From Deltaproteobacteria bacterium (GTDB lineage: Bacteria > Lernaellota > Lernaellaia > JACKCT01), in contig JACKCT010000011.1 of the NCBI GenBank assembly GCA_020633895.1, forward strand, positions 3,607 to 67,606: a stretch of DNA of 64,000 nucleotides, given 5' to 3'. Below, piece after piece: positions 927 to 43,292 of this stretch. The notes beneath the pieces were generated by a model that did no database searches, was not told the origin of the DNA, and saw nothing but the letters and a program-made list of their open reading frames with translations. The position numbers and the translations under genes are program-made. How positions within the stretch are numbered: the first letter of the stretch is position 1; each line of letters starts with the position of its first letter.

Positions 927-994
927 CCGCTCTCACAACTCGCGATACGACGACGGCGGCCCGCAGGGCCGCCGTTGCTATGTTGAGAGCTCGT

Positions 995-3382: not shown

Positions 3383-3585
3383 TTTGGTGATCCAAAGATA
3401 GTATTCTTTCCGGTGACCGATTATCGCACAACGCCACTTGCCGTGGGAAAAGGAAATCGACGGGGCATCGCGAATTTTCCTTCCTCTTGCGCCCGCCGCG
3501 CCAATCGCCCAAACTGCTTGTGTCTTCACGATCTTCGCCGTGAACGATGATTCAATCTCCCGGAAAACACCGACAGGACGCGCGC

Positions 3586-4539
3586 ATGCCCCACAGCTCC
3601 CGCAAGCGGGTCATCCTCACCGGCGCCTCGGGCGTCGTGGGCCGCCATCTGGTCGACGCGGTTTTGCGTCGCGGGTGGGAGGTCTCGGTGCTGACCGTCA
3701 GCGGCGCGAACGTGCTGCCTTCCGGCGTGCGCAAAATCAAATGGGATCCCAAGGCGGCCGCCGGCGGCGACTCGAAGGCGCTGGACACCATCGCCCGGGC
3801 CCTGGACGGCACCGACTGGCTGGTGAACCTCGCCGGGGAAACCCTGGGCAGCGGGCGGCTGGACGGCAAGCACAAAAAGCGCGTGATGCAGTCGCGCCTC
3901 GACGCGGGCAACGCGCTGCATTCGGCGCGGCTGGCGTGCTCGAATCCGCCCATGGTCTGGACGCAGGCCTCGGCCACCGGCTTTTACGGCGACACGGGCG
4001 AGGCGGATGTCTATGAAACGGCCCCGGCGGGAAAGCACTTCTTCCTGGCCGATGTGTGCAAGGCGTGGGAAGGCGCCGCGACGCAGGCCCTGGACGCCCC
4101 CAAGGCGCCGCGCGTGATCATCGCCCGGCTGGGGTTGGTGCTCGCCAAGGACGCCCCGGCGTGGGAAAAGATGTTGCTGCCCATCAAGATCGGCGCGGGC
4201 GGTCCGTTGGGTTCGGGCAAGCAATGGTACGCGTGGATCGACGCCGACGAGGCGGCCGAGGCGATGATCTACCTGTTCGAGAAAAGCGACGCGAGCGGCG
4301 TGTATAACTTCACCACGCCCGAGCCGATCCGCCAGATTGACATGACCAAACAAACCGCCGACGCCATCGGTCGGCCGTCGTACTTCCCGGCCCCGGCCTT
4401 CGCGCTGCGCCTGGCGGTGGGAGGCGTCGCCGACGCGCTGCTGCTGCCGTCCTGCCGCGCCCTCCCCGACCGCCTCGCCAAGGCGGGCTATCCCTTCAAG
4501 ACGACGGACTTCGAGGACGAGCTGCCGAAGCTGGTTTAG
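3586..4539 (+). CDS. TIGR01777/YfcH-like NAD-dependent epimerase family protein
   Basis: ILTGASGVVGRHL Rossmann motif at the N-terminus. Overall YfcH-like layout with a C-terminal DUF1731-like region. Second Met chosen as the start. Confidence 0.65.
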   Translation: MPHSSRKRVILTGASGVVGRHLVDAVLRRGWEVSVLTVSGANVLPSGVRKIKWDPKAAAGGDSKALDTIARALDGTDWLVNLAGETLGSGRLDGKHKKRVMQSRLDAGNALHSARLACSNPPMVWTQASATGFYGDTGEADVYETAPAGKHFFLADVCKAWEGAATQALDAPKAPRVIIARLGLVLAKDAPAWEKMLLPIKIGAGGPLGSGKQWYAWIDADEAAEAMIYLFEKSDASGVYNFTTPEPIRQIDMTKQTADAIGRPSYFPAPAFALRLAVGGVADALLLPSCRALPDRLAKAGYPFKTTDFEDELPKLV

Positions 4540-4817: not shown

Positions 4818-6233
4818 TCAATAAAAATTGATCTTCGAATACCCATCCACAATCGCCTCGCCGAACGTCGGGCTGATGCACAGCATTTTTTCGTACGAGT
4901 AGCGCGGGTCGTCGTATTGCTCGGGCGTGATGATATAGCCGGTGTATTCCTGCGCGAGGCCGACGATGATCTGGGCGTCGCCGCCGAGGATGTCTCGGAT
5001 TTGGTTGCCGAAGACCGGCGTGATCTCCCCCGGCACCGTGCCCAGGCGGATCGGGCCGAGCGTCGCGGCGGTGAACGGCGCCGTGAACGAATCGCCCACC
5101 TTGGGCACCGGCAGGTCCAGGATGCCCACGTGGGATCCGAATCGATACAGCGAGTTGGTCATCGTCGCCGTCGCATGCCCGCTATGCACCCGTAGCGTCG
5201 CGTCGGGGGAAATCGGCGTCGTGTGATCCATCAGACCGATGACCTGATCGGCCAGCGCCGCGCCCATCGCGTCGGCGAACGCCAGCGGTCCCGCGTCGTA
5301 TCCGGGATTGCCTTCCCACTTGTGGTTCGGCTGGATGGACGCTCCGATGGCTCCGTTGACGAACATCGCCAGCCCCGGCGCCCGGCGGCGCATGGCCTTG
5401 TAAAATCCCCCGACCCAGTCGGCGGAAATGCGGTGGTTGCGCTGTCGTCCCGTCGTGGGATGGCAACCCCAGTTCGTCAGCGTCGCAATCACCTGGCCGT
5501 TTTTGTCCTCGATCTTGAGCAGCGTCAGTGTATCGTCCACAACCGCGTCCGGATCGACGTCCTCCTTTTCATTGCGATGCAGTTCGGACTGCGTCGCGAC
5601 GGTGTAGGACAGGCGGGCCGGCAGACGCGCGTTGAAAGCCTGAACCCCCGCCGCTGCCATCCGCGCCCGCATGAACGGAATGTACTCCCCGTTGCGTCCG
5701 GTGGTCGGCGGGATGATGCTGCCCCAAAGGCCGATGGTGTCCGGGCCGTGGTGCGTGTGGCTGGAGGCGATGACGATGTTTTGATAGGGCACGGGCACAC
5801 GCTCGGCGACGGCCTTGCGGATGAGGTTGATGTCGCTGCTGGTCAGGCCCACCAGGTCGGCGTGGATAAGCAGCAGGCGCTCGGGCCCGGTGCCCAGATA
5901 GAGGGCGGTGGCGTAGAGCGGATCATGCACACCCACCGACCAGCGGCAGGAGTTGTAGTCCAGGAAGCACACGCCGTAGCCGCCCATGATGACCGGCGCG
6001 CGGGGCGTGATCTCCAGCCGTGCCGCTCCGGCAACCTGCACGTTGGAATAGGTGAACTGGTCGTCGGCAAGGGTCGGCGCCTTGTCGGGTTTGGCGGGCA
6101 GGGACGTGGACGATTCGTCCAGGGAATAGGCGCCGGGAGCCGGCTCGGGGTGCTGGGCCGCGCAACCAAAGGACAACAAGACGACGAAAACCGCGATCCC
6201 CAGGCGCCAACGTCGCGCGAGCGAAAGTCGCAT
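4818..6233 (-). CDS. Neutral/alkaline ceramidase-like hydrolase, lipoprotein
   Basis: SSHTHHGPDT resembles the Zn-binding HTHSGP motif of neutral ceramidases. QEYTGYIITPEQYD resembles the ceramidase GY-rich motif. Start moved to MRLSLARRWRLGIAVFVVLLSFGC (lipobox). Confidence 0.5.
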   Translation of the reverse strand: MRLSLARRWRLGIAVFVVLLSFGCAAQHPEPAPGAYSLDESSTSLPAKPDKAPTLADDQFTYSNVQVAGAARLEITPRAPVIMGGYGVCFLDYNSCRWSVGVHDPLYATALYLGTGPERLLLIHADLVGLTSSDINLIRKAVAERVPVPYQNIVIASSHTHHGPDTIGLWGSIIPPTTGRNGEYIPFMRARMAAAGVQAFNARLPARLSYTVATQSELHRNEKEDVDPDAVVDDTLTLLKIEDKNGQVIATLTNWGCHPTTGRQRNHRISADWVGGFYKAMRRRAPGLAMFVNGAIGASIQPNHKWEGNPGYDAGPLAFADAMGAALADQVIGLMDHTTPISPDATLRVHSGHATATMTNSLYRFGSHVGILDLPVPKVGDSFTAPFTAATLGPIRLGTVPGEITPVFGNQIRDILGGDAQIIVGLAQEYTGYIITPEQYDDPRYSYEKMLCISPTFGEAIVDGYSKINFY

Positions 6234-6337
6234 CAACTTTTCTCCCCGATTCAAAGATATCGCGATGAATTTGTTCCGCCAATGTAGCACAGGCGGGCGC
6301 ACGGGCAATGGGGGGCGAACCAATGGGGTCAAACGAA

Positions 6338-6625
6338 CTATGAGATCCCGACAAGTTCCGCGAGGATTTCTTTCTTCATGCGCGGTTTCAGCATTCGCAT
6401 TGTCGCTAAGTCGACGTTACGGCTTAATAAACCTTCCAAATCGAACTTGAGGCCCATATAGCCGTCAAACGTAGCGCGTCCTTCGAATTCCACCAGCATA
6501 TCCACGTCGCTGTCCGGGCGTTCCTCGCCCCGGGCGACCGAGCCGAAGACGGCCAGTCGGCGCACGCCGTATTTCTTCGTCAATTCCGGAGCGTGTTCCT
6601 TGAGCGTTTCGATGATGGTCGACAT
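6338..6625 (-). CDS. MNT-type minimal nucleotidyltransferase (antitoxin-like), orphan
   Basis: GSVARGEERPDSDVDMLVEF is the GS...DxD nucleotidyltransferase motif (PF01909-like). Start set at MSTIIETL. No HEPN/HepT partner fits in the flanks. Confidence 0.6.
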   Translation of the reverse strand: MSTIIETLKEHAPELTKKYGVRRLAVFGSVARGEERPDSDVDMLVEFEGRATFDGYMGLKFDLEGLLSRNVDLATMRMLKPRMKKEILAELVGIS

Positions 6626-6744
6626 GATTCGACGCCACTCCTCGCGACGCATTATACGCAAAAACCGTCCATGAAGGGGCAACGGGATTTTCGTGGACGC
6701 TCGGCCCTCCCGGCGGCCGCCGCTTTGGGCTAAGCTGGCGCACT

Positions 6745-7794
6745 GTGACGACAAACCGCGCCAAGAAAATCGCGTTCGCCGCGTTGGCGGTGGCGGCGGC
6801 CCTCGTCGGCGCGGAGCTGATCCTGCGCGCCGTGACGCCCCCGATCGACCAAAATTACAGCCTCAAAGTTTATGACGGTTTCCTCGAAGGCCACACCGGC
6901 CACCAAGCCGACCACGATCTGTTCTGGCGCCTGACGCCGGGCTTTCGCGGCGTCTGGGACAGCACCGAAATCCGCGTCAACCAACTCGGCCTGCGCGGCG
7001 AGGACTTCCCCGCCTATCGGGTCTCCGGCGAGTTTCGCCTCCTCTCCCTGGGCGAGTCGGGCACCTTCGGCGTCCGCACCCCCGAGGAACAAACCTACAA
7101 CGCCCAACTCGAAGCGCTGCTCAACGCCCGAGGCGACGGCGTGCGCTACCGCGTCATGAACGCGGGCGTGGCGTCGTACACATCGTTTCAAGGCCGCAAA
7201 TATTTCGAGATGGAGGGACGCAAGCTCGAGCCGAACGTGGTGCTCGTCTACTTCGGCCAGAACGACAATCTGCCCACCTACTTCGAGGATAAGCTGACAA
7301 TCACCAACGCCTTCGGCCTGCCCACCTACGGCCGGGGCATGACCGACGCGGAGATCTGGCGGGCGCGGCACCGGGCCGGGGATGTGCGTCGCGGGTTAAT
7401 GAAATCGGCGCTGTATCGCAATTGGGCGGCGTTTGTGCTGTGGATCGAACACGGCGTGCGCGGACGCCCCGTCGAGCCCACGCCCCGCGTTCCGCCGGAG
7501 GATCGGCGCGAGAATTACCAGGCCATCGACCGCTTGGCGAAAGGCATCGGCGCGCGCGTGCTCTACTTGATCACGCCCTATTTCGACCAGCCCGTCCCAC
7601 TGCCCGATGGATTCGGTCCCGGCTCGACGCACCACGTCTGCGACCTTTGGACCGGCATCCGCCGTGAGGGCCAGGACTATCGCGAGCTGTTCTCGGACGA
7701 TGTGCATCCCACGTCGCTCGGCCATCGTCTGATCGCCGAGACCATCGCCGAATGCCTGGCCGATCAGGGGCTGCTGCCGACAACCCGCGAATAG
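6745..7794 (+). CDS. SGNH/GDSL family hydrolase
   Basis: LSLGESGTFG is a GDS(L) block I with the catalytic Ser. DDVHPTSLGH is the DxxH block V. N-terminal TM/signal anchor. Confidence 0.7.
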   Translation: MTTNRAKKIAFAALAVAAALVGAELILRAVTPPIDQNYSLKVYDGFLEGHTGHQADHDLFWRLTPGFRGVWDSTEIRVNQLGLRGEDFPAYRVSGEFRLLSLGESGTFGVRTPEEQTYNAQLEALLNARGDGVRYRVMNAGVASYTSFQGRKYFEMEGRKLEPNVVLVYFGQNDNLPTYFEDKLTITNAFGLPTYGRGMTDAEIWRARHRAGDVRRGLMKSALYRNWAAFVLWIEHGVRGRPVEPTPRVPPEDRRENYQAIDRLAKGIGARVLYLITPYFDQPVPLPDGFGPGSTHHVCDLWTGIRREGQDYRELFSDDVHPTSLGHRLIAETIAECLADQGLLPTTRE

Positions 7795-9746: not shown

Positions 9747-11396
9747 GTGATGATGTTTGGGTCCGAATTCTCCCGTTTTCGGGAAACGTTAAGTCTTTTT
9801 CTGGTTTTGCTTCTTTTTTCGTTCGTCTTGGGTTGCGGCGGAGAAGAGACGACCGAATCGGTCAGAACCGGCAACGACACGGGCGACACCTACCACGGTC
9901 AGGGAGACCCTGACGACTCCGAAACCGACGACGACGTCGCGGCGGATGACGATGTCGCCTCCGATGACGACGCGGCGGACGACGATGTCGCTCCCGAAGA
10001 CTTCCGGATCGAGGTGCTGCCCATCAGCGCCGGCAATCCCCTGAGCCGCTCGATCGTTGTCACCACGGCGGAGCCCATGTCCCTGTCCGCCCGGGCGACG
10101 ACCGCCGGAGAGCCGGGCTACGCGCCGTCGTTCCCCTCGGCGAGCGAATGGGGCACGCGCCACGAGTTCCTGCTGGCCGGGTTGATCGCCGAAAAAACCT
10201 TCGAGGTGGAGATCCTCGACGCCGACGACCCGTCGCGCGTCCTGGCCACCACCGAATTCGAAACGTCGGCCCTGCCCGAGCACGCCCCGATCATGACGGT
10301 CGAGACCTACGACAAAGGCGCCGCTCGCCCCGACCGTTGGGCGTTGCAGTCGCTGTTTGAATTGGGTGGTAAGCTGCCCGTGGGCGTGAACGGATTCATC
10401 ACCCTGTACGACCGCCTGGGCCGGCTGCGTTACTACCATGAGGTCAACGTCGACGACACGCAGCCCGGCATGGTCGTCTTCGGCGTCACGCCCATGAGCG
10501 ACGGCAGCTTCGTGTATTCCTGCGACAACAAGTTGTATCGGGTCGACCGCGCCGGCGGAAACAGCGTCTATATCGATCCCCAACTCGGCGACGAGATCCT
10601 CGAGGAAATCCACCACCAGTTCTACGTCGACGAGGCCTCCGGCCAAGCCGCGATCCTCTATAACGAACGCGGCCCCGCCTACGAATGCGACCAAACCACG
10701 CTGACGCAGGAAGCGGTCGGCGACGGCATCGCCCGTGTGAACATGAGCGGCGACGTGCTCTGGGATTGGAGCGCTTTTGACCACCAGGACGTGCTCTCTC
10801 CGGTCGTGCCCGACGTGGCGATGTGCGTTCTTCAGCGCAGCTCGTTCGGCGACGGCGTCGTGGACTGGACGCACGCCAACTCGGTCTACCCCACCGACGA
10901 CAACACGGCGCTGATCGTGTCCATCAAGAACCTCAGCGAGGTCGTGAAGATCAACGCCTTCACCGGCGAGATCATCTGGCAACTGGGCGCCGGCGGCGAC
11001 TTCACATGGCAGGGCAGCGAGCCGGTGCTGGAGCGCTGGTTCTGGCATCAGCACGACGCCAAAATCCTGCCCAACGGCAACGTGCTCCTGTTCGACAACG
11101 GTAACTGCCGCTCGGGCACATGCCCGTGGGGGCCGTGGTCGCGGGCGCTGGAACTGGCGATCGACGAAGAGAATATGACGGTGCGTGTCGTCTACGAGCA
11201 TCGGGTGAAGATGGCCCTGGCGATGGGCAACGCGGACCGGCTGGAGGACGGCAACACCTGGATCGGCTCGGGCGCGTCCAAGCTGTCGGTCGAAGCCACG
11301 CCCGCCGGTGACGAGGTCTGGTCCGCGGCGATCGACGCGGGTTATCAGTCCCGCTCGCTGGCCTACCCGGCGCTGTGGGTCTATCCCGAGGAATAA
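9747..11396 (+). CDS. Arylsulfotransferase (ASST)-like beta-propeller lipoprotein with N-terminal poly-Asp tether
   Basis: Signal peptide and lipobox FVLGCGG, then a D-rich tract (DDDVAADDDVASDDDAADDDVAPED). DWTHANSV and WHQHDAKILPNGNVLLFDNGN resemble ASST family signatures. Confidence 0.5.
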   Translation: MMMFGSEFSRFRETLSLFLVLLLFSFVLGCGGEETTESVRTGNDTGDTYHGQGDPDDSETDDDVAADDDVASDDDAADDDVAPEDFRIEVLPISAGNPLSRSIVVTTAEPMSLSARATTAGEPGYAPSFPSASEWGTRHEFLLAGLIAEKTFEVEILDADDPSRVLATTEFETSALPEHAPIMTVETYDKGAARPDRWALQSLFELGGKLPVGVNGFITLYDRLGRLRYYHEVNVDDTQPGMVVFGVTPMSDGSFVYSCDNKLYRVDRAGGNSVYIDPQLGDEILEEIHHQFYVDEASGQAAILYNERGPAYECDQTTLTQEAVGDGIARVNMSGDVLWDWSAFDHQDVLSPVVPDVAMCVLQRSSFGDGVVDWTHANSVYPTDDNTALIVSIKNLSEVVKINAFTGEIIWQLGAGGDFTWQGSEPVLERWFWHQHDAKILPNGNVLLFDNGNCRSGTCPWGPWSRALELAIDEENMTVRVVYEHRVKMALAMGNADRLEDGNTWIGSGASKLSVEATPAGDEVWSAAIDAGYQSRSLAYPALWVYPEE

Positions 11397-11469
11397 TTCG
11401 ACGGCCGTCAGCCGACCATCGAGCAAACGTTCTCCTCTCCTCACGAGCAGAACTTGCCCTCTAACACCG

Positions 11470-11505
11470 AAGGGGCGCCGCAAGGCGCCCCTTCTTCTTT
11501 GGTTT
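11470..11505 (+). terminator. Rho-independent terminator
   Basis: AAGGGGCGCC-GCAA-GGCGCCCCTT hairpin followed by CTTCTTTGGTTTG. Confidence 0.6.
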
Positions 11506-11525
11506 GCGCACCAAAACCGAGGCAG

Positions 11526-13022
11526 CTAACAGCCGCACCCCGCGTCGGTGTCATCGTCATTGAGGTCGGCATCGTTGTCGCTATCTGTGTCGTCGTCGTC
11601 ATCGTCCGGCACTTCGGGTAATTCACCGATGCGCCAGTTGACGAGGTATTGCTCGCCGCCGATCAACGCCGTTGCCAGCAGCGACGATTCGTTTTCAAAA
11701 ACGTAAGAGTCGATTCCCAGCTTTTTTATGCCGTCGGCGAGCGGTAGTTCTTCGCAACTCGCCGCGTCATGGTCGAAAATCGAATGGCAGAGACGAAGAA
11801 ATATTCTGGTTCCGACTCCGGAATATTCCCCCGAATAGAAGAACGACGTACCGGAAATGAACGGCGGGCCGACTCGATAGTATTCGTCAACGGCATCGGC
11901 TCGGAAGGCGTCGCTCCATATCGAATCGTCGTCGATTCCCGCTGCACCCGCGCCGGCGACCCGCGTCAGCGCTTTATCATTGGTGGCGATATTCGTTGAC
12001 GTCCACGCCAGCATCTCTTTGCGCTCGCCATCCAGCTCTTGAAAAGTCGCGGTGACGTAACGCGTATTGTAATGGACCGGCGAATCGCGGATTTCACCGT
12101 CGGGCGTGACGATGACATCGTTCAATCGTCCCTCCCATCCCGTGCTCGACATGTCGACGGTGTAGCCGACGTAAATTTCTTGTCGAGAGTTGTGCGTCAG
12201 ATATCGCGGAACAACAAAGTTGATGTCTTCCGCTTCGCCGATCTCCAACGGGACTTCGATGGTCTTCAAGACTTCGCCGCTGAAGCTCATTTGAACGACT
12301 CGGCCGTCCGAATATTCCGGCAGGCCATTCTGGCTATACGCGATGAGCAACGACGGCTCACCGCCGTCCATTCCGCTGAGGATGTCATAAGCGGCGCCGC
12401 GAATATCCTCCCCGAATTCGATCGTCGATTCATCGAGCAACGATCCGTAAAAGTCGAAGGTCGCCAGACGCAGGGACTCGTCGGACGGCCGGTCCACCAA
12501 GACGAGAAGGTCGCTGTCGATTCCGCCGCGCACGGCGAAGGCCACGGGATCGTCGAACTCCAAATCGTAGCGTTCGGCGGCGACCTCATTACCGCCCAGA
12601 TCGTAGCGGATCATGACGAAGCGCCACTTGTCGTCGTCGCTCCACGAGCGGCCCCAGACGAACAGCGCCGGGTCGGAAGGATGCGTCGCGTAGCCGCCGA
12701 GGGAGCCTTGGAGCACGCCGATCTGTTCGTCTTCGTCGAGGCCGGGGGCTTGGTAGAGGTTCAGCTTTTCACGCTCGCCGGTGAGGGTGTCGAAAACGGC
12801 CAAACCAATCTTCGGCGGACGATCGCCGCCCGCCCGTGGCGTGATCCCCGCGTACAATCGCGGCTCGTCGGGATGGACCGCGAAGGGGACATAAGCGATG
12901 TTCGGTGCGTCGTCGCTCGTGATCTGCCGGCTATAGAATAGGGTGACGTCATCGTCCGCTTCCGCGACGCCGAGCCGTCCAAGGCCCAACACCAAAACCA
13001 ACGCGAATTTTCGCGTCCACAT
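11526..13022 (-). CDS. SPI-secreted hypothetical protein with C-terminal poly-Asp tail ending AGCGC
   Basis: N-terminal signal MWTRKFALVLVLGLGRLGVAEA. C-terminus VPDDDDDDTDSDNDADLNDDDTDAGCGC-stop. No recognisable catalytic motif. Confidence 0.55.
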   Translation of the reverse strand: MWTRKFALVLVLGLGRLGVAEADDDVTLFYSRQITSDDAPNIAYVPFAVHPDEPRLYAGITPRAGGDRPPKIGLAVFDTLTGEREKLNLYQAPGLDEDEQIGVLQGSLGGYATHPSDPALFVWGRSWSDDDKWRFVMIRYDLGGNEVAAERYDLEFDDPVAFAVRGGIDSDLLVLVDRPSDESLRLATFDFYGSLLDESTIEFGEDIRGAAYDILSGMDGGEPSLLIAYSQNGLPEYSDGRVVQMSFSGEVLKTIEVPLEIGEAEDINFVVPRYLTHNSRQEIYVGYTVDMSSTGWEGRLNDVIVTPDGEIRDSPVHYNTRYVTATFQELDGERKEMLAWTSTNIATNDKALTRVAGAGAAGIDDDSIWSDAFRADAVDEYYRVGPPFISGTSFFYSGEYSGVGTRIFLRLCHSIFDHDAASCEELPLADGIKKLGIDSYVFENESSLLATALIGGEQYLVNWRIGELPEVPDDDDDDTDSDNDADLNDDDTDAGCGC

Positions 13023-13162
13023 TTTCTTCCCTCCGAATGCCCGCTAATTCCTGCAAAAAAATTCACGTCGTCATCTTACGACAAACTGCGCCCAACACTC
13101 GAAGAAAAACGCGGAAGCCGAGAGGCTTCCGCGCGTGGTTGGTGGAGATATATCGGGAGGGG

Positions 13163-15322
13163 TTAGGAGCCGCAACCCGAGTTGTCGTCGTCGTCATCGT
13201 CGCCCGTATCGTCGTCGGCCGAATCGTCGTCGCCGAAGTCGTCATCCGAATCATCGTCCCCGGTGTCATCGTCCCCGGTATCGTCGTCGCCCGTGTCATC
13301 GTCGTCGTCATCGCCGACGGGGCCGTCCGTCAATCCGGTCAACACCAGCGAAAACGCCTGGGGGCCGTCGGGCACGTCCGAGCCGGTCACGACCACCGTC
13401 ACCGTCTCGCCGATGCGGGGTTCGCCGTCGAACTGCACCTGCTCCACCGGATCCCGATGGTTCTCGCCCTTGGTCGCGTCGTCCGCGGGGTGGGCCGGAT
13501 CCAGAATCCAAGGCAACTCGTCGCCGTCTTTCGTGACGATCTTCAAATCCAGGTCATTAACCAACGATTTACTGGTCAGTACCGGGCCGGGCTTGTCCGT
13601 CCAGACCAACGTCGCCTTCACTTCACCGCCGTCGACCGTGAATTCCTGTTCCCAGACGTCGCCCTGGTCCAACGCCTCGTCCAGAACCAGAATTCCGTCG
13701 TCCATCGCCAGCACGGACCCGGGAATGTTGAGCACGCCGTAGCCCATGCGATAGCTCGGCCCGTCCTGCTCTTCCACCTTCTTCGCGCCGTGCACCACCA
13801 ACGCCTTGAACGTCGAGTGGGCCGCCAACGGCTCGCCTTTCGTGTCCTTCCAGCGCTGCATCAGCAGGGAAACGCCGCCGGTGACGACCGGTCCGGCCAT
13901 GCTCGTGCCGCAAAAGGAGATGTATTCGTTCTTGCGACCCGTGGCGACAATGCCCGGCGGGCAGGCCTCGTCGTGATTTTCGCCGCAGACCGCCGGCGTC
14001 GCGCGCCCGGTCGAGCACCCCGGCGCCGACACATCCGGACGCAGTCGCCCGTCGTCGGTGGGCCCCCAACTGGAGAAGAACGAGACCGAGTCGTCCTCCT
14101 TGTTCGACGAGCCCACGCCGATGGAGTTCTTCGCCGTGGCCGGCGGCGCGATGGTCTCGTAGGTGCCGCATCCGGGGGAATAGCCCCGTTCGTTGCCGAT
14201 GGACCACACGATGGAGATCGGGCCGTAGGCGCCGCCGACGATGGTGTCGATTTGCTGGGCGGTCAGATTGTAGTCGCCCTCAAACTCGCAGTAGCCGTTC
14301 TGGTCGTTGGCCAATTCGGCCAGGTTGGATCCGATGGAATTGTTGGCCACGTTCGCGCCGTACTCGTTGATGGCCGTGTCGTAGGCGGTGTCCATGTTGC
14401 CGTAGTTGTAATACATGGGCGGCAGCAAGCCGTCGAAGCCGGGAATGAAGCTGGCGGAGATGACGCCCACTTCCGGCGCCATGCCTTCGATGAACCCGTC
14501 CGAATTGGTCCCGTCACCGGCGATGATGCCGACCACGTGGTGGGGGTGGCCGACCACGTCGGGAACCGGCAATCCGAAGCGCTCGACGCGCCCGGCCCAG
14601 TCGTCGTTGCCGTCGAGCTTGACGACGCCGCCGTCCAGCACAAACGCCTTGACGCCCTTGCCGGTCAGGCCCCAGGTCTCCTTGGCCACGTCCGCGCCGG
14701 TGGCGGGCTTGGCCTGATACATATTCTCTTCGAGCTGCATCGACGTCTCGTCGACCCACATCACCGCGTCGTTCGCCGCGATGGCTCCGAAGTCCCGCTC
14801 CCCGGCGGCAACCTGGAACAGGCGGATCGACGGGGCCTCGTCCAGAATCGCAAGGCCCATCCCCTCGAGCATCGCCCGACCCTGGGCCATGGTCACGTCG
14901 GGATGCATCTGAACGTCGAGGACGCGGCGGCCGTCGGCCAACTTGCTATGGGCATGCAGCATGCCGTCGCGCAGGCCGCGCGAGATCTTGTCTTCGGCCG
15001 GCAGTTCGCCCGCCCAACGCACCCGCCGCGCGGCGGCGTCGGTCACATGGTCCAGGCGAGCGACCCAGGCCCCGTTGCCCAGCGGCGTCAGCAAATGCAA
15101 TCCCTCACGCGCCAGTTCGCGACGCTCGGCGGCCGTCGGTTTATGGTCCATCCGGACCAGGGCGTGCGTGCCGTCCATGGACGCCGGACTCGACCCGACC
15201 GATTTTTCCAAGGTCGGATCGATGGTTCGGTTTTTCAAATGAATGGCATCGTCGGCCAGGCCCGGACGGGCGGTCCAACTCAAGGCAACGGCCGCCATCG
15301 CGACCAGCGACAAAAAACGCAT
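13163..15322 (-). CDS. Subtilisin-like serine peptidase (S8) with C-terminal poly-Asp tail ending GCGS
   Basis: Signal peptide MRFLSLVAMAAVALSWTARPGLA. Catalytic Ser motif GTSMAGPVVTGG, His region HPHHVVGIIAG, Asp region FVLDGG. C-terminus GDDDDDDTGDDDTGDDDTGDDDSDDDFGDDDSADDDTGDDDDDDNSGCGS-stop. Confidence 0.8.
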   Translation of the reverse strand: MRFLSLVAMAAVALSWTARPGLADDAIHLKNRTIDPTLEKSVGSSPASMDGTHALVRMDHKPTAAERRELAREGLHLLTPLGNGAWVARLDHVTDAAARRVRWAGELPAEDKISRGLRDGMLHAHSKLADGRRVLDVQMHPDVTMAQGRAMLEGMGLAILDEAPSIRLFQVAAGERDFGAIAANDAVMWVDETSMQLEENMYQAKPATGADVAKETWGLTGKGVKAFVLDGGVVKLDGNDDWAGRVERFGLPVPDVVGHPHHVVGIIAGDGTNSDGFIEGMAPEVGVISASFIPGFDGLLPPMYYNYGNMDTAYDTAINEYGANVANNSIGSNLAELANDQNGYCEFEGDYNLTAQQIDTIVGGAYGPISIVWSIGNERGYSPGCGTYETIAPPATAKNSIGVGSSNKEDDSVSFFSSWGPTDDGRLRPDVSAPGCSTGRATPAVCGENHDEACPPGIVATGRKNEYISFCGTSMAGPVVTGGVSLLMQRWKDTKGEPLAAHSTFKALVVHGAKKVEEQDGPSYRMGYGVLNIPGSVLAMDDGILVLDEALDQGDVWEQEFTVDGGEVKATLVWTDKPGPVLTSKSLVNDLDLKIVTKDGDELPWILDPAHPADDATKGENHRDPVEQVQFDGEPRIGETVTVVVTGSDVPDGPQAFSLVLTGLTDGPVGDDDDDDTGDDDTGDDDTGDDDSDDDFGDDDSADDDTGDDDDDDNSGCGS

Positions 15323-15506
15323 TGTTCCTCCGGGGAGCGCTCGTCATCACGGCGAGGCAAAGGGCCGCGTCGCGGCCCCTCAAGCAAACGTTCAATTCGG
15401 CGCCTCTTTTATAGCACGTCGCGTGGTGAGGATGTAAGTCGCGTTCCCGGAATGCCGATACCGCCGGGGGACGCACCCGGGTTGTTCGCCGCGGACGCGA
15501 TGGCCT

Positions 15507-15737
15507 ATGATCGTGCGGTTCGATATCGAGGTGCGCGTGGCGTATATCAGATGCCCGGAATGCGGCGAGCAGGTTTCCAGCAAGGCCTACAACTGCCCCC
15601 ACTGCGGGTGCCCCATGCCCCTGTTCGGCGGCGGCAAGGCCAAGGCGAAAAAGCACGCCGTCCTGGCCGGAGTGGGGTGCCTGGGTTTGATCGCGGTCAT
15701 CGCAGCCGCCTACCTGCTTGTCACGCGCGTGCTCTAG
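15507..15737 (+). CDS. Small zinc-ribbon plus single-TM protein
   Basis: CPECGE...CPHCGC (four-Cys zinc ribbon), then a K-rich linker and a C-terminal TM helix. Confidence 0.4.
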   Translation: MIVRFDIEVRVAYIRCPECGEQVSSKAYNCPHCGCPMPLFGGGKAKAKKHAVLAGVGCLGLIAVIAAAYLLVTRVL

Positions 15738-15770
15738 CGACGCCTGATCCATCCAAACTCTCGTCGCCAC

Positions 15771-15815
15771 AAAAAAACGCCGGGGCCATGCGACCCCGGC
15801 GTCTTTCGTTCGTGC
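15771..15815. terminator. Bidirectional rho-independent terminator
   Basis: AAAAAAA, then ACGCCGGGG-CCATGCGA-CCCCGGCGT hairpin, then CTTTCGTTCGTGCGTTTTT. Lies between convergent genes. Confidence 0.65.
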
Positions 15816-15830
15816 GTTTTTCGGGCGCGC

Positions 15831-17048
15831 TTAGAACACCACCTCGGTGTTGAGCGTGATGAACTGGTCGGCCTGCTTGGTGACGTCGTCGCCGTTGTCG
15901 TCGACGATCTCCGCGGTGTAGGAGGTAGCGCGGTAGTTCAGGTTGAACTTAATTTCCTTCAGCGGGTAGTACCAAATGCCCGCCAGGATCGTACTCTCCT
16001 CATCTTGGTAGCCCACGCCCGTGCCCTCGTCGTTCTCCGTATTGGGATCGAAGTCATCGTAATAGACGAGCAGACCCCACTGTTTGCAGAACTGGAACTC
16101 AAGCCAAGCCGCCAGCACGGTCGAATCGACCGGATCCACGCCGTCGAGTTCCTCTTCCACGGTGCGCATGCCGTACTCGCCGTAGAGCGCCAAGCTCATC
16201 GAATCGGAGAACGGATAGGCATAGTTGAGAATACCGCCGTAGTAGGTATCGACCACATCCGGGTGGTTAGTCTCGACTTTCCCGTACCCGGCCATGCCCA
16301 TGATATTCAGTTCCCCGGCGTCCTTCACTCCAGCCAGCGCGTTCACGTACGCAGCGGCCTGGGCATGCTTTCCCGAGTTGGCCTCCTGGCGGCCGACACC
16401 TTCGCCGTTGAACACACCGGCTTTCCAACCACCGAAGCCCTTGGGGAAGGAACCGTGAACCGCCACACCCGTGTCCGACGGGCCGGTGCGCACCATACCG
16501 TGCTCGAACATCGCCTCGTTCCTGATGTAGCGGTGCTTCCACAGCTTATAGACTGTGGCGTGGGACGACGGCTGAAGACCGAAGGTGCCGCCGATTTCCG
16601 GAATCGGCTGGTAGGTCAGATACGCGAATTTCACGAACACCTCGGGGCGGTCGGTGCGAGACGAGGTCGCTCCGCTGATCACTTCGGTGCCCTCGTCATT
16701 CGCGTCCACAGTGCCGTCACCATTGGTATCCGTCGTGGCCGGCAAGGTCGTAGTCGTGTAGGACACCGTCTCGCCGGGCCGAGAGTCGAAGGTGACACGC
16801 GCCGACCAGTCGTCCGAGAGTTTGGCTTTCAGACCCAGATAGGTACGCGTGACGTTAAAGCTGTTGGTGTCATTGTCGTCGAATCGGGGATCGTAATCCT
16901 CGTACCCCGAAATATTGTACGTGTAATCCAGGAACAGGCGCATCTCCGGCGTGACCTTCGGACCGTCGCCGTCCGCACGGGCCGCCGAGACTCCCACCGT
17001 CGCCGTCAGCACCAACGCCGCCAGCGCCAAGAACCCTACGCGTTTCAT
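15831..17048 (-). CDS. Outer-membrane beta-barrel protein (porin-like)
   Basis: Start set at MKRVGFLALAALVLTATVGVSAARA (SPI signal). Alternating amphipathic beta-strand pattern. C-terminal residue is Phe (ends ...VVF), typical of OMPs. Confidence 0.55.
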   Translation of the reverse strand: MKRVGFLALAALVLTATVGVSAARADGDGPKVTPEMRLFLDYTYNISGYEDYDPRFDDNDTNSFNVTRTYLGLKAKLSDDWSARVTFDSRPGETVSYTTTTLPATTDTNGDGTVDANDEGTEVISGATSSRTDRPEVFVKFAYLTYQPIPEIGGTFGLQPSSHATVYKLWKHRYIRNEAMFEHGMVRTGPSDTGVAVHGSFPKGFGGWKAGVFNGEGVGRQEANSGKHAQAAAYVNALAGVKDAGELNIMGMAGYGKVETNHPDVVDTYYGGILNYAYPFSDSMSLALYGEYGMRTVEEELDGVDPVDSTVLAAWLEFQFCKQWGLLVYYDDFDPNTENDEGTGVGYQDEESTILAGIWYYPLKEIKFNLNYRATSYTAEIVDDNGDDVTKQADQFITLNTEVVF

Positions 17049-18713: not shown

Positions 18714-19244
18714 TCAATCTCCGTCGTCCCCCGGCATGAACCCCAACACCACCGCCGGCAATCCATGCGCGAAAAACGACGCGATCCACCACGCGATCCA
18801 CGACCGGCCCGTGCGGTGGGCATAGAGCGCCGTCAGGCCCATGGTGACAAGCGTCAGCGCCCCGTCCGCGACCAGGTTCGCGCCCAACGGCGAGAGCACG
18901 TACCCCACCGGCAGGGCGTAGTACGTCACCAGACCAAGATGCGCGACACCGACCGCCAAACACACCCGACGCAGTCCCCCGGCCCTTTCGGCCGGCCGCG
19001 CGCGGCTGCTCCATGCCGTCCCGACCCACACCGCGGTCAACGCCGCCGACGCGGCCATCAAAAAACGGGCGGCCTCTTCCATTTCGCCGGGCAGGTGCCG
19101 GGAATAGATCAACACCTCGATCGCCCGCGCCGCCCACAACGGGGCCCACGCCGCCGCCAGATAGGGCCATCGACGGTGCGGCCCCACCAGCAGCGCCACC
19201 GTCGCCAGCGCGGCGAAATAAGCGGCCAAAACGTATTGAAACAT
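18714..19244 (-). CDS. Hypothetical integral membrane protein
   Basis: 5-6 hydrophobic helices and no recognisable motif. Confidence 0.4.
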   Translation of the reverse strand: MFQYVLAAYFAALATVALLVGPHRRWPYLAAAWAPLWAARAIEVLIYSRHLPGEMEEAARFLMAASAALTAVWVGTAWSSRARPAERAGGLRRVCLAVGVAHLGLVTYYALPVGYVLSPLGANLVADGALTLVTMGLTALYAHRTGRSWIAWWIASFFAHGLPAVVLGFMPGDDGD

Positions 19245-19363
19245 GCCTGAACCCGCGATCGGTGAAGGAAGCCGGATCTTAGACCCGCCCGACGCGATTG
19301 CAAATCGGCCTCAACTTGCTAACATCGCTTGCCCTTTCACCTCCCATCGAAAAAGGCCCATTC

Positions 19364-20410
19364 ATGAGCGCCGCCGTCCAAGAAGCCACGCCCAAGGAGA
19401 TCGCCGCCGCCCTGCACGAGCAGTTCCCGGTCGCCGATCTGCATATCGATACCCTGCTGTCCCACGAGTTGCTGGGCTACGACATGCTGCGTCGCCACCA
19501 GAACAAGGTGCCGTTCGCCCCGCTGCTCTTCCACGCCGACCTGCCCCGCGCGCGGGAGGCCGGCCTGAATATCTGGGGCCTGGGTCTGGTCACGTGGCCC
19601 ATGGGCGATCCGATCCGCCTGTTCAAACACATCGAGCGCGAGCTGCTCTACATGAACCGGGTCTGCGCCCAGTACCCGGAGGAAATTTACGTCATCACGG
19701 ACAAGGCCTCCCTGGCCGACGGTGTCGCGAAAAATCGCGTCGGCTGCTTCGCGGGCATCGAGGGCGCCCACGCCATCTCCGGCAACCTGGACCGGCTGCG
19801 TCGTTCCTATGACCTGGGGATGCGCTATTTCACCATGGCCCATTTCTCCTGCAACGAGGCGTGCGCCTGCGCCAAGGGCTGGGGCGCCAAGACCCGCACC
19901 AACGAAGGGCTCACTCCCTTCGGACGCACCCTCCTGGACACGCTGCACAAGATGAGCATCGTGGTGGACCTGTCCCACATCAACAAAAAGGGCTTCATGG
20001 AGTGCTGCGAGCGCTCCGACCGCCCGGTGATGGTCAGCCACACGGGCCTGTCCGGCGTCTTCCCCTCCTGGCGCAACATCGACGACGAGCAGGTCGAAGC
20101 CGTCGCGAAAAACGGCGGCGTCATCGGCGTGATCTTCGGCCCCCAATTTCTCAACGGCGCTTTGTTCAACTGCACGATCGACGATCTGGTCGACCATATG
20201 CTCCACGTCATCCGCATCGCCGGCGCCGACCACGTGGCCTACGGCTCGGACACGGACGGCTGGCTGGCCACCATGCCCAAGGGCTTTCGCGGCATCGAAG
20301 ACCTGCCCCTGATCACGCAGCGGCTGCTCGAGCGCGGCGTGGCGGTCGACGACGTCAAAAAGATCATGGGCGGCAACGTGGAGCGCCTGCTCAACGAGAT
20401 TCTGGCGTAG
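19364..20410 (+). CDS. Membrane dipeptidase (peptidase family M19)
   Basis: DLHIDTL resembles the M19 (renal dipeptidase family) H-x-D metal-binding block. The later HTGLSG block and overall length also fit. Start set at MSAAVQEATPKE. Confidence 0.65.
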   Translation: MSAAVQEATPKEIAAALHEQFPVADLHIDTLLSHELLGYDMLRRHQNKVPFAPLLFHADLPRAREAGLNIWGLGLVTWPMGDPIRLFKHIERELLYMNRVCAQYPEEIYVITDKASLADGVAKNRVGCFAGIEGAHAISGNLDRLRRSYDLGMRYFTMAHFSCNEACACAKGWGAKTRTNEGLTPFGRTLLDTLHKMSIVVDLSHINKKGFMECCERSDRPVMVSHTGLSGVFPSWRNIDDEQVEAVAKNGGVIGVIFGPQFLNGALFNCTIDDLVDHMLHVIRIAGADHVAYGSDTDGWLATMPKGFRGIEDLPLITQRLLERGVAVDDVKKIMGGNVERLLNEILA

Positions 20411-20422
20411 CAACCCGGCTCT

Positions 20423-21181
20423 CTAAAACGGATCTTCCTCTTCTTTTTCCCGCGAGGGCGGCGGCGGCATCGGTACGTCGCTGCTCATCCCCAGACTTCG
20501 CCCTTCGTGCCGACGCATCGGCAGCGTGACGATGCCTTCGCCCGTCGTTTTGCCGTCCATGGTTCTTTCGCGAGAGGCGGTCTGCCCGCTGACCGATGAT
20601 CGAATTTCGTTAATTTTTTCCCGCGCGTGAGAATTTTCCGACGTGACTGCGTCTTCCGCCTCGCGAAGGGCGAGTAGGAGCAATTCACCATAGCGCTCCA
20701 CCCGAGCGTGACCAAATCCGCGAACTGCATGGAGTTCGCCGACCCGACTCGGACTGCGTTGGATGATCTCGACAAGCTGTCTGTTTGTGGCGACGACATA
20801 GGCCGGTGACGATTCGCGTTTTGCTTGGCGCAATCGCCATGCCGAAAGTCGATCGAAAATATCGCGCTGGCGCGCGTCCAATTCTTCGCGAAGGTCGCGG
20901 GTGCGGGTCGTCGCCGTTGTCGCCTCGGGGATCGTCGGTTTTTCGCCGCCGGTCGATCCATGCGAACCGGATGCGTCCCGCGCGGTCGGCGCCTCGCCCA
21001 GGTACGACGCCACGACCGTCAGATACGGCCGCCCGTGGTGGATGAAGAAATGGTCCGAGAACCGACGCAGGTCGCGGCCCTTCAGAAACGCCTGCAACTC
21101 CCGATCGTCGAAGTTTCGCTTCTCGTCGTCGAACTCGAGCGTGAAAATCTTGAGCCGCACCGGCCCGCCGGTCCCCGACAT
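20423..21181 (-). CDS. Stand-alone HRDC-domain protein
   Basis: IFDRLSAWRLRQAKRESSPAYVVATNRQLVEIIQRSP matches the HRDC consensus (RecQ/RNase D C-terminal domain). No helicase or nuclease domain. Start set at MSGTGGPV. Confidence 0.5.
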   Translation of the reverse strand: MSGTGGPVRLKIFTLEFDDEKRNFDDRELQAFLKGRDLRRFSDHFFIHHGRPYLTVVASYLGEAPTARDASGSHGSTGGEKPTIPEATTATTRTRDLREELDARQRDIFDRLSAWRLRQAKRESSPAYVVATNRQLVEIIQRSPSRVGELHAVRGFGHARVERYGELLLLALREAEDAVTSENSHAREKINEIRSSVSGQTASRERTMDGKTTGEGIVTLPMRRHEGRSLGMSSDVPMPPPPSREKEEEDPF

Positions 21182-21534
21182 CCTAACGCACTCCTCGTCG
21201 ACCCGCGGCCCCATCGCCGCGCCGATCGCCCCAAGGCAAAACCAAAACCCATGCCAAACACGCCACGGCGTCTCAAACCCTGAATTGACGCAGGTTTTCA
21301 CGAACCGGAAAGGGAAATCGCGAAGGAGCCGAAAGGCGGAGTGTTCGATTATCGGTCAGCGACTATTCGAAAATCGGAGACGATACCGATCTTCGAATAG
21401 TGACACCCTTTCGACACGCGCTGTCACGAATTTTTCCTTGTCCCATGCGGCGCGCGATGCCAATAATAGCTGGACTCTCGAAAATCACGGCGGCATTCGG
21501 GGCGCCGCCGGTCGACAGCAAAAGGATGCGAACG

Positions 21535-23862
21535 ATGCACCGCTTCGCCAAGGCCCTTGTGCCCCTAATAGCCCTCATCTTCTGCTTACCCTTGCTTGCG
21601 GCCGATGGCTGCGGGGGCGATGACGACGATTCCTCGGACGATGACGTGACGGACGATGATGCCGTTGATGATGATGCGTCCGACGATGACGCCATGGATG
21701 ACGATGTCGGCGACGACGATTCGTCGGATGACGACGACACAACGGACGACGATACCGGCGACGGCAATCGCTTTGATATCTGCGAAAAGGGGTACAACTC
21801 GGGCGACGGCTTTTGTTACGCGCATCTGGCCGATCCTGTGGCGGGTGAGGAAGGACTCGGAATGGTCGTCGACTCCACGGGGACAGCTCATGTCGTCGCA
21901 ACTCGCGGCCGCGATCTCCTGCACTATAGCCGTGACCTCTCCGCCAAGAACGACGGGTGGACCGAGGAGACAATTCGGCAAAATGCCGGCGGGTGGACAG
22001 TGGGTGTCGATGCCGACGATGCCTTGCATATTGCATTCAATGACGACCTTAGCCATCGACTGATTTATGCAATACGGCCTGCGGGCAACGAATGGCAGTT
22101 CGAGACCGTCGAAGACAACGGCAAAGACAAAGAGTGGATCAAGATCGCTGTGGAACCCGACGGCACGCCACATATCAGTTTCACGGACGAGGACTATCAA
22201 AGTGCCAAGTACGCCACGAACGAGTCCGGTGAATGGGCGGTTCAGGAACTCTTCACGATAGGAAGTAGCGGCATCCAGAACCGCATCGCTGTTACCTCGG
22301 CCGGGGTCGTTCATATCCTTCACCACGGACGTTATCGCGGCTCTAACGGCGACTGGGAAACAGATCGCAAGGTCCTGCATCACACGAACGCGTCCGGCGA
22401 TTGGAAGACTTGGTGGAGTCGTTTTCCGGTTTCTTGGGAGCAATTGGCGGTCGACGAAAACGACACCGTTCATTGGATTTTCGGCGACGGAACGGCATAC
22501 GCGCCCTGGCAACACGGCGTCTACCAAAGTAACGGCGAGTGGGACATCGTCGAAAAATCTCCGGAGAGCCCCAACGCGCTGTGGCCCAGCGACGTCATTG
22601 TTCGCGAAGGGCGTGTCTTAATCGCCGCGGAGAACGGATACTACGGCGACCATTTCATTTCCCTGTCGTCATTCGAATTCGGCGAGGATCCGGTTCGCGA
22701 ACATCTGTTTTACTTAGGCGATAGCCGCCACGAGGCGGAGGCAATTGCCGCGGCATGGAGCGATGGAATGCGCATCGCGTATTTCGACAAAGCCGACGAC
22801 CATATCGGCTTCGTACAGCCGGACGGCGCCGGTGGATGGTCCCGGGAATACGTGGCGCCGCCGATCGAACGTCCGCGACATGTGCAGATCGTGCGCGACA
22901 ATATTGCGAACCGGACTGATCTGCTCGTCACCTACAACAACAGCGACGACGACCAGACGGGAAACGACCGACTTCTCCTCGGCCGATATTCAGACGGAAC
23001 AATCGACTTCGAGGAACTGCCGCTTGGCCGGGAGATTTACGCGTACAGTACTCCGCGCTTGCACGTTCGAGACGGCGTCGTCTTTATCTATGCCGCCGAC
23101 AACCGTGAGCGCTCGTTTTTTATCACTAACCGAGACGGCTCCTGGGTGGAACAACGGCTTCGTTTTGAAGGGATCGAAAATATTCGTCTCAGCGCGATCG
23201 CCCTTGGACGGGATAAGGCCGTTCATTTTTTGGTGGGAGACGGCCTCTCGCCGAATGGAAAGAATGACCCTCTCTATTACCTACGTTGGGACGCGGACGG
23301 GCAATGGCACAAAGAGTTGATCTACCAAGATCCCGACAGCAAACCGCCTTCCGTCTATGCCTTTGCCTTGGATCACAGCGACAAGTTTCACCTTCTAACA
23401 AGCGGACATGACGGCAAGTTGGCTTATTGGACAAATCGTTCAGGAAATTGGATGAGCGAAGCCATTGATCTAAGCTGGTATGTCGATGAAGCCCACATGG
23501 TCATTGACGCTGACGGCAGGGTTCATGCCGTCGTGAAAATCAATGAACCGAATCCGGATAACGACGGCCTGTTTTACCTGACGTTGAAGGGCGCCGCTGT
23601 CGAAGAGGCAAAGAAATTTTCGTTTAACGCTCGCGACGCACACCTCTCCGTAACCGACGCAGACGACGTCGTGATGACGATGGAGCTATTTGACGCCATC
23701 GTCCTTGCCGAAGATCTTTCAGGGAAGACTAAGCTGACGACGATTGACGATCTGGGAGAGGTCGGAAACCCGACCGGCTACTGTTCCACCTCGCGGGATT
23801 GCGTGTTGGCCTATTACGCCGGCGGCGACTGGGCGATGGCGACCTGGAATCCAGCGCATTAA
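21535..23862 (+). CDS. Lipoprotein with poly-Asp tether and beta-propeller-like TNxSGxW repeats (paralogous in architecture to 995-3382)
   Basis: AAAGGA, 8 nt, then ATG. MHRFAKALVPLIALIFCLPLLAADGCGG, then DDDDSSDDDVTDDDAVDDDASDDDAMDDDVGDDDSSDDDDTTDDDTGDG. Repeats HIAF..L.YA.., ATNESGEW, HTNASGDW, WTNRSGNW, ITNRDGSW. Confidence 0.6.
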   Translation: MHRFAKALVPLIALIFCLPLLAADGCGGDDDDSSDDDVTDDDAVDDDASDDDAMDDDVGDDDSSDDDDTTDDDTGDGNRFDICEKGYNSGDGFCYAHLADPVAGEEGLGMVVDSTGTAHVVATRGRDLLHYSRDLSAKNDGWTEETIRQNAGGWTVGVDADDALHIAFNDDLSHRLIYAIRPAGNEWQFETVEDNGKDKEWIKIAVEPDGTPHISFTDEDYQSAKYATNESGEWAVQELFTIGSSGIQNRIAVTSAGVVHILHHGRYRGSNGDWETDRKVLHHTNASGDWKTWWSRFPVSWEQLAVDENDTVHWIFGDGTAYAPWQHGVYQSNGEWDIVEKSPESPNALWPSDVIVREGRVLIAAENGYYGDHFISLSSFEFGEDPVREHLFYLGDSRHEAEAIAAAWSDGMRIAYFDKADDHIGFVQPDGAGGWSREYVAPPIERPRHVQIVRDNIANRTDLLVTYNNSDDDQTGNDRLLLGRYSDGTIDFEELPLGREIYAYSTPRLHVRDGVVFIYAADNRERSFFITNRDGSWVEQRLRFEGIENIRLSAIALGRDKAVHFLVGDGLSPNGKNDPLYYLRWDADGQWHKELIYQDPDSKPPSVYAFALDHSDKFHLLTSGHDGKLAYWTNRSGNWMSEAIDLSWYVDEAHMVIDADGRVHAVVKINEPNPDNDGLFYLTLKGAAVEEAKKFSFNARDAHLSVTDADDVVMTMELFDAIVLAEDLSGKTKLTTIDDLGEVGNPTGYCSTSRDCVLAYYAGGDWAMATWNPAH

Positions 23863-43260: not shown

Positions 43261-43292
43261 TGTTTTTGCGGAATTTAAGGGAGCCGACGACG

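Follow-up and report, generated by a model that had tools for sequence, protein, structure and literature searches.

A modular poly-Asp-GCGC tag at the C terminus of secreted proteins in Lernaellota-type bacteria, a probable tail-less relative of MYXO-CTERM

INTRODUCTION

A stretch of 64,000 nucleotides from a bacterium placed in the Lernaellota (GenBank assembly GCA_020633895.1, contig JACKCT010000011.1, positions 3,607 to 67,606; this whole stretch is called the window, and its own numbering is used below) contains two adjacent genes for secreted proteins, a subtilase and its neighbor, whose products both end in a run of aspartates followed by Gly-Cys-Gly-Ser or Gly-Cys-Gly-Cys and then stop. 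The question that this locus raises is whether the shared ending is an accident or a signal and, if it is a signal, what it does. We read it as a pre-trimmed, Cys-based surface-anchoring tag, a tail-less relative of MYXO-CTERM in which poly-Asp serves as a spacer, and we give this reading as a whole an even chance of being right.

To our knowledge, all described prokaryotic C-terminal sorting signals combine a signature motif with a transmembrane (TM) helix and a basic cluster. In MYXO-CTERM (NCBIfam TIGR03901), the signature is followed by a TM helix and then by an Arg cluster, and GCGC is its published signature motif. One Cys is invariant, the signature is often GCGC or has two nearby Cys, and cleavage by a myxosortase is predicted to occur after the last Cys. 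The myxosortases MrtX, MrtC, and MrtP belong to the CPBP family, the cargo needs the type II secretion system (T2SS), and MYXO-CTERM has been reported only from Myxococcota and Bradymonadales.

RESULTS

The sequence-only reading of this DNA had described two adjacent proteins with type I signal peptides, one of them an S8 subtilase, that end in poly-Asp and GCG[C/S], and the open reading frames (ORFs), the Pfam matches, and the termini agreed with that description. The subtilase gene (13163 to 15322, minus strand) encodes 719 amino acids and carries the tag variant GCGS. Its predicted type I signal peptide (residues 1 to 23; 15254 to 15322), MRFLSLVAMAAVALSWTARPGLA, ends in GLA before a mature protein that starts with DD, and the leader contains no Cys at all and thus no lipobox Cys. 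The Peptidase_S8 catalytic domain (PF00082) was matched at residues 254 to 529 (13736 to 14563) with an E value of 1.3e-34, and the catalytic Asp, His, and Ser motifs were found at residues 230 (VLDGG), 261 (HPHHV), and 472 (GTSMA), so that the Asp motif lies upstream of the Pfam-defined domain; by this match and these three motifs, the predicted product is a member of peptidase family S8. The poly-Asp linker covers residues 671 to 713 (13184 to 13312), with 30 Asp among 43 residues and a DDDx periodicity, and is followed by the terminal N-S-G-C-G-S (13166 to 13183) and a TAA stop codon (13163 to 13165). A single base (TCC versus TGC) separates the ending GCGS from the consensus GCGC.

The neighbor (11526 to 13022, minus strand) is an orphan secreted protein of 498 amino acids with the consensus ending GCGC. 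Its predicted type I signal peptide (residues 1 to 22; 12957 to 13022), MWTRKFALVLVLGLGRLGVAEA, ends in AEA before DDD and also lacks Cys, and neither of the two leaders fits the lipobox pattern [LVI][ASTVI][GAS]C of N-terminal lipoproteins. The acidic linker (residues 473 to 493; 11544 to 11606) has 14 Asp among 21 residues and runs into the terminal A-G-C-G-C (11529 to 11543) and a TAG stop codon (11526 to 11528). Thus, the tract length of 30 to 60 residues that had been given for both proteins holds for the subtilase, with its 43 residues, but not for the neighbor.

Poly-Asp tracts are repetitive and error prone, and the window itself holds just two cases, so that chance, in the form of a low-complexity ending, had to be considered along with frameshift and assembly artifact. 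That explanation is already refuted, and an artifact is excluded. A protein 100% identical to the window subtilase (P0001) is found in an independent NCBI record of a metagenome-assembled genome (MAG), GCA_020633875.1. A GC-rich, terminator-like hairpin with a T run lies directly past the subtilase stop (13109 to 13134, minus strand), and a second GC-rich hairpin, which looks like a bidirectional terminator, lies between the neighbor and a convergent arylsulfotransferase gene (11469 to 11494). Because a hairpin follows each stop and the identical subtilase occurs in an independent record, we take both C termini to be genuine. The more than 100 further cases described below use all three stop codons (TGA, 70; TAA, 23; TAG, 14; n = 107 among the matches listed), read-through past the stop would expose a TM segment in only 2 of 106 census ORFs, and the motif is kept in orthologs from many samples. 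Frameshift, read-through, and selenocysteine were therefore ruled out, given the terminators past the stops, the three stop codons in use, and the lack of a downstream TM segment.

One genome per GTDB species was scanned for DNA encoding DDD-x-GCGC followed by a stop codon, and this census returned at least 113 loci. At least 107 of the matches were long ORFs with poly-Asp tracts in eight related MAGs, one of which is labeled FR-FEN-1099-1 (FEN-1099, Lernaellota); among the matches listed, 10 were from unrelated taxa, in short ORFs without poly-Asp, and the number expected by chance, estimated from the information content of the pattern, was about 9. Two of the MAGs had at least 24 strict-pattern matches each. 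GCGC was the dominant signature in these ORFs and in the orthologs, and most copies had two closely spaced terminal Cys. A separate scan, in which N termini were read heuristically, yielded 76 full-length tagged ORFs with leaders resembling type I signal peptides, which fell into at least 36 unrelated families. The tagged proteins included S8, C25, M14, C1, and M28 peptidases, GH43 and NAGidase proteins, and FG-GAP, PKD, Kelch, and RCC1 propeller proteins, a range of cargo that is characteristic of surface-sorting tags. The conservation among orthologs, the census, and the modularity together mean that the pairing in the window is not due to chance, as it would have been if no other proteins with -GCG[CS] ends existed, and the census answers that doubt decisively. 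It is nearly certain that this is a real, modular C-terminal tag found throughout the lineage. In one family of about 230 residues (L009, 5132 to 5797, minus strand; L081, 3383 to 4081, plus strand; L105, 7258 to 7974, plus strand), a type I leader was combined with a poly-Asp tract at the cleavage site and a second poly-Asp tract plus GCGC at the C terminus.

Subtilase orthologs with 37 to 47% identity to the window protein were compared from many metagenomes; one of them (P0057) is from Candidatus Alcyoniella australis, of the phylum Lernaellota. In 25 of 26 orthologs, a Cys followed the acidic tract at 0 to 2 residues from the C terminus. The ending was almost always GCGC and otherwise GCCG, GCGGC plus two residues, GCGCMM/AM, or GGCF, the last being a single-Cys variant (P0016), while the acidic linkers varied freely. 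The tail past the last Cys ranged from 0 residues through 1 to 3 residues to a full TM and Arg tail. Short tails of 1 to 3 mostly hydrophobic residues (-QV, -QA, -MM, -AM, -WI, -GL, and -MIA) were seen in L130, L138, L160, L172, L220, L228, P0014, P0015, and P0125 to P0127, the last three of which end in GCGGC-WI, GCGGC-GL, and CGGC-GL, respectively. These short tails seem confined to certain samples or organisms; they are CaaX-like, and a CPBP-type protease may trim them. Directly upstream of the tag, some orthologs have MopE-like Cys/Asp-rich modules (PF11617). More distant homologs of the subtilase carry type IX secretion system (T9SS), FlgD-Ig, or dockerin-like tails at the position of the tag. 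As in the window, tagged genes cluster on metagenome contig L119, where a subtilase ortholog is followed by three further tagged genes (12223 to 14082, 14198 to 16309, and 19025 to 20953, all on the plus strand) with the variant endings GGCCGC, GGCCSC, and EEGCCG.

The tag shares with MYXO-CTERM its place at the extreme C terminus of Sec-exported proteins (judged from the N termini of both window proteins and of more than 60 census proteins), a signature with an invariant Cys, a disordered linker before it, and its use by dozens of unrelated proteins in each genome, mostly hydrolases and adhesins. However, it lacks two of the three defining parts, since the stop comes directly after the last Cys or Ser and there is neither a TM helix nor an Arg cluster. 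The tail-less C termini gave no match to the TIGR03901.2 hidden Markov model (HMM) even at an E value of ≤10. With no helix, no Arg cluster, and no qualifying HMM score, the tag falls outside the MYXO-CTERM domain, strictly defined. Further differences are that no protease would be needed, that the hosts are MAGs of the Lernaellota/FEN-1099 type, outside the reported range of MYXO-CTERM, and that the linker consists of an extreme run of Asp. Tagged proteins stop where a myxosortase is predicted to cut, so that the encoded C terminus equals the predicted cleavage product.

Forms with a tail connect the two. A single subtilase ortholog (P0021) had a TM tail: it ends in poly-Asp-GGCGGC followed by a TM segment and RNRPR, and it matched TIGR03901 with an E value of 0.004 and 17.4 bits (cutoff, 20); it is 44 to 45% identical to the tail-less P0022, P0057, and P0124 and 42 to 45% identical to P0125 to P0127. 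A metagenome scan for DDDDGCGC with no stop required found 39 poly-Asp ORFs that end at the stop, 7 with 1 to 3 extra residues (QV, QA, G, or MIA), and about 10 with classic TM and RRRR tails; given these mixed tails, the acidic-GCGC junction is common to the tail-less tags and to bona fide tripartite ones. On one 11.8-kb metagenome contig (L169; Ga0272444_10004827), both forms occur together. One gene (5953 to 7587, plus strand) ends in poly-Asp-GCGC-RAGGNTTALPLTAMMLLIGLAAFCFGLRKNQ, which scored 23.0 bits with TIGR03901 (cutoff, 20), and the gene located two genes downstream (9942 to 11657, plus strand) ends in poly-Asp-GCGC and a stop codon. The latter protein shares 48 to 49% identity with tagged proteins from the census MAGs. 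A poly-Asp lipoprotein adjoining a tagged gene on this contig is matched, at 60% identity, by a protein of the census MAG DAIPLW whose gene likewise lies upstream of a tagged one. The high-scoring tail, taken with this homology and local synteny, suggests that MYXO-CTERM is not limited to Myxococcota and Bradymonadales. Tail-less tags were also found together with a Cys-TM-basic tail in L079, which is from a census MAG, and in L144. The idea that the lineage is wholly without tripartite tags was dropped: a strict scan of the census loci gave none, but a lenient scan gave L079, and the metagenome loci L144 and L169 were added to it. The lineage thus has both forms, at about 100 tail-less tags per tripartite one in a sampling that was centered on tail-less tags.

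Because GCGC is the MYXO-CTERM signature and orthologs and neighbors on the same contig carry poly-Asp-GCGC-TM-basic tails, the tag is not an isolated invention, and we consider it highly probable that it is related to MYXO-CTERM as a tail-less relative. The signal class is already known, whereas the truncated, tail-less form is new. It has no model in Pfam or in NCBIfam release 20.0 (June 2026), and no description of it was found in the MYXO-CTERM papers, in the description of Lernaellota, or by keyword searches of the literature. As had been claimed, no hydrophobic segment follows the tag, and it is not of the PEP-CTERM, LPXTG, or GlyGly-CTERM type; Pfam and NCBIfam scans of the tag found no PEP-CTERM, GlyGly-CTERM, LPXTG, or T9SS signatures, no TM segments, and no Por_Secre_tail. 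Nor did it have the signatures or TM segments of JDVT-, Synerg-, or CGP-CTERM. What the tag shares with all of these signals, and with the C-terminal domain of T9SS cargo, is its position and its role as a cargo-sorting appendage.

The tag has a counterpart at the other end of the chain. In at least seven window ORFs, G-G-(DDDx)n comes after a lipobox Cys, and predicted lipoproteins with mature Cys-Gly-(Gly)-(DDDx)n N termini are encoded at 995 to 3610 (minus strand), 9747 to 11396 (plus), 21289 to 23862 (plus), 23938 to 26115 (minus), 38981 to 41113 (plus), 42828 to 43922 (plus), and 47255 to 49132 (plus). Across the loci, 34 such N-terminal modules were found, three of which begin with C-x-C-G-Dn, the exact mirror of Dn-G-C-x-C. 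Both kinds of module place a Gly-flanked Cys beside (DDDx)n at a chain end (C-G-G-Dn versus Dn-G-C-G-C), and they are mutually exclusive, with 31 N-terminal lipobox-poly-Asp proteins, 101 C-tagged proteins, and not one protein that had both. However, the polarity is opposite, and the tag has no lipobox or signal peptide context for Lgt, which together with Lsp processes N-terminal lipoproteins. The earlier description of the tag as the N-terminal module reversed is valid as a symmetry but not as a mechanism.

No dedicated processing enzyme, which had been thought of as a possible companion of the tag, was found beside tagged genes. When 695 neighboring ORFs were clustered, only syntenic housekeeping genes emerged (histidine kinases, B12-radical-SAM paralogs, CDP-alcohol phosphatidyltransferase, SLT, and outer membrane proteins). 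A recurrent neighbor family of VolA/Pla-1-like phospholipase lipoproteins was considered and was taken to be an abundant paralogous family rather than a partner. These poly-Asp lipoproteins of about 700 residues (window, 23941 to 26112, minus strand, and 39008 to 41110, plus strand; also L071, L072, L077, and L079) have weak similarity to VolA/Pla-1 phospholipases of the alpha/beta-hydrolase type and a conserved C-terminal C-D-G-x-C-D-P-D, and they often adjoin tagged genes in the census loci.

The neighbor protein has the tag as its only interpretable feature. It had no Pfam match and no PDB match, and its sole full-strength homolog among 5.8 billion clustered proteins and 1.8 billion representatives was a 99% identical partial protein. 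Two weak matches to the SBBP repeat (beta-propeller) were obtained (E value, 3e-4), and a single-sequence AlphaFold model was unusable (pLDDT, 41). It may be a divergent beta-propeller; several SBBP-like proteins of the census are also tagged.

DISCUSSION

As read from the sequences, the tag consists of a disordered poly-Asp spacer with Gly-Cys-Gly-Cys-COOH at its end; GCCG, GCGGC, and GCGS occur as variants, and 1 to 3 extra residues may come after the motif. In the mechanism that we propose, tagged proteins would be exported by Sec and cleaved by signal peptidase I, as their N termini indicate, and the terminal Cys thiol(s) would then be covalently modified, most likely by S-lipidation if the analogy with the MYXO-CTERM model holds. 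The enzyme or adhesin would thereby be retained on the cell surface, with poly-Asp as an extended, charged spacer such as the one that apparently lies beside the lipidated Cys of the lineage's N-terminal lipoproteins. The zero-tail form would need no intramembrane cleavage, while the forms with 1 to 3 residues and with full tails would be trimmed by a CPBP-type protease; tail lengths of 0, 1 to 3, and about 30 residues fit trimming where there is a tail and none where it is absent. The zero-tail form leaves a protease nothing to remove, and GCGC is nevertheless strongly conserved, so that the Cys motif should have a function that is independent of cleavage. The suggestion of a novel C-terminal anchoring or modification signal is thus the best reading of the tag, with the amendment that it is a tail-less relative of MYXO-CTERM and not something unrelated to CTERM signals. 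In its full form, that dozens of exoenzymes and adhesins in Lernaellota-type bacteria are anchored via poly-Asp-GCGC-COOH, covalently lipidated or otherwise modified, without a TM tail or an intramembrane protease, the proposal is tentative, and we would sooner expect some part of it to fail than all of it to hold.

Eukaryotic proteins offer a comparison. CaaX proteins are prenylated and then cleaved by Rce1, a CPBP protease, whereas Rab proteins ending in -CXC or -CC are doubly geranylgeranylated without proteolysis. The endings -CGC-COOH and -CCG of the tag resemble Rab -CXC and -CCX, and the tails -C-MIA, -C-QV, and -C-MM resemble the short tails of CaaX proteins, in both cases as a sequence pattern only. 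A long or short tail that would be trimmed by a CPBP protease and a zero tail that would be left untrimmed could be set in parallel with CaaX and Rab, respectively, as an analogy only, one that draws in part on a discussion by Haft. The eukaryotic reactions take place in the cytosol, whereas the tag would act in the periplasm or on the cell surface, and no link to a prenyltransferase is apparent.

Several observations weigh against the anchoring tag as proposed. The window subtilase itself has a single Cys (GCGS). Modification of the Cys is a proposal by analogy, and lipidation is a hypothesis even for MYXO-CTERM in Myxococcus. In the MYXO-CTERM model, the TM helix keeps the substrate at the membrane so that it can be lipidated, and an enzyme in the membrane may act poorly on a tail that is soluble and strongly anionic. 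No CPBP-like or myxosortase ORF was found by motif scans covering about 1.7 Mb of sampled loci, a result that says little about a single-copy gene, and the same amount of sampled DNA showed neither an additional Lgt nor any other conserved partner. Linkage to T2SS genes was found only at the tripartite P0021 and at none of the tail-less P0008, P0009, P0011, P0124, P0126, and P0127. Finally, extreme poly-Asp tracts with thiols would also suit the binding of cations or metals.

The last point leads to an alternative that had been raised at the outset, that the tag is an appendage that binds cations, metals, or minerals. Poly-Asp would chelate Ca2+, Mg2+, or Fe, the terminal thiols would bind chalcophile metals or metal-sulfide surfaces, and exoenzymes would be tethered, with no covalent modification, either to particles or to an outer membrane bridged by cations. 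The composition, with up to 30 to 60 Asp and one or two terminal Cys, fits this, as do the anoxic habitats indicated by the ecology of Lernaellota, in which free thiols persist, and the MopE-like modules upstream of the tag in some orthologs. However, metal binding does not explain why the Cys motif sits at the extreme C terminus, why it is identical to the MYXO-CTERM signature, why some homologs have TM and Arg tails, or why no protein has both the tag and an N-terminal lipid anchor, and the sole metal-related HMM similarity was noise (ZrgA; E value, 1 to 5). Metal or mineral binding is thus possible, but we do not favor it and judge it unlikely. The Cys could instead be recognition determinants rather than attachment sites, in a signal for crossing the outer membrane by T2SS or another exporter or in MYXO-CTERM cargo that is released and not anchored. 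MYXO-CTERM cargo requires T2SS, the gene for P0021 comes immediately after those for PilN-like and T2SS-M proteins, that for P0014 is preceded by a giant pseudopilin-like gene, and the lack of a TM tether could mean that there is no lipidation. T2SS substrates are generally recognized in their folded state and not by terminal peptides, though, which counts against such a signal together with the six tail-less orthologs that have no T2SS linkage, and the mutual exclusion with N-terminal lipid anchors suits an anchor better than an export signal. We consider an export role improbable as well.

A third possibility is that the terminal CGC forms disulfides, as an intermolecular tether to a partner on the surface or outer membrane, for oligomerization, or as a redox-active CXC unit. 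The pair of closely spaced Cys in most copies would suit this, and CXC peptides are redox-active mimics of protein disulfide isomerase. It is difficult to reconcile with the single-Cys variants (GCGS in the window and GGCF in P0016), with the single invariant Cys of MYXO-CTERM, and with a lineage that is apparently anaerobic, and it leaves the TM-tailed homologs unexplained; a disulfide function is therefore doubtful indeed.

If the surface-anchoring tag is real in the proposed form, it would be a bacterial counterpart of Rab-type -CXC lipidation and the first prokaryotic C-terminal sorting signal without the tripartite architecture. A widely used tag made of the signature alone would show that the Cys motif functions on its own, independently of cleavage, and it would be a natural substrate that separates the Cys-modifying step from the cleavage step of the MYXO-CTERM class. 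We know of no enzyme that has been identified as modifying the MYXO-CTERM Cys, and the tag, as a substrate that needs no protease, would provide a handle on it. The tag would also let annotators flag hundreds of unrecognized surface proteins in Lernaellota-like MAGs, and the poly-Asp ends of the lineage's secretome would be explained as spacers that adjoin a Cys anchor point at one terminus or the other.

OTHER FEATURES OF THE LOCI

The gene convergent with the neighbor (9747 to 11396, plus strand) encodes a poly-Asp-linker lipoprotein of the arylsulfotransferase (ASST) family (PF05935; E value, 1.5e-40). On the metagenome contig with the only TM-tailed subtilase ortholog (L117), the PilN-like and T2SS-M genes (3 to 999, plus strand) are followed by the gene for P0021 (1016 to 3340) and then by a PMT-type (GT-C) glycosyltransferase gene (3345 to 4124, plus strand). 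The giant gene before P0014 encodes a pseudopilin-like protein of 2183 amino acids with a prepilin N-methylation motif.

The window also encodes an 862-residue S41/PDZ C-terminal-processing peptidase (27027 to 29615, minus strand), whose best NCBIfam match was the MXAN_5808 family of Prc (TIGR03900) at 339 bits, below the cutoff. PDZ domains read free C termini; this gene is 14 kb from the tagged genes, and no link between them was shown. Farther along are a 794-residue ankyrin-repeat protein with a lipoprotein-like leader (44713 to 47094, plus strand) and, near it, two adjacent genes for GT-C-type glycosyltransferases, GT87 (49385 to 50620, minus strand) and PMT_2 (50657 to 52423, plus strand).

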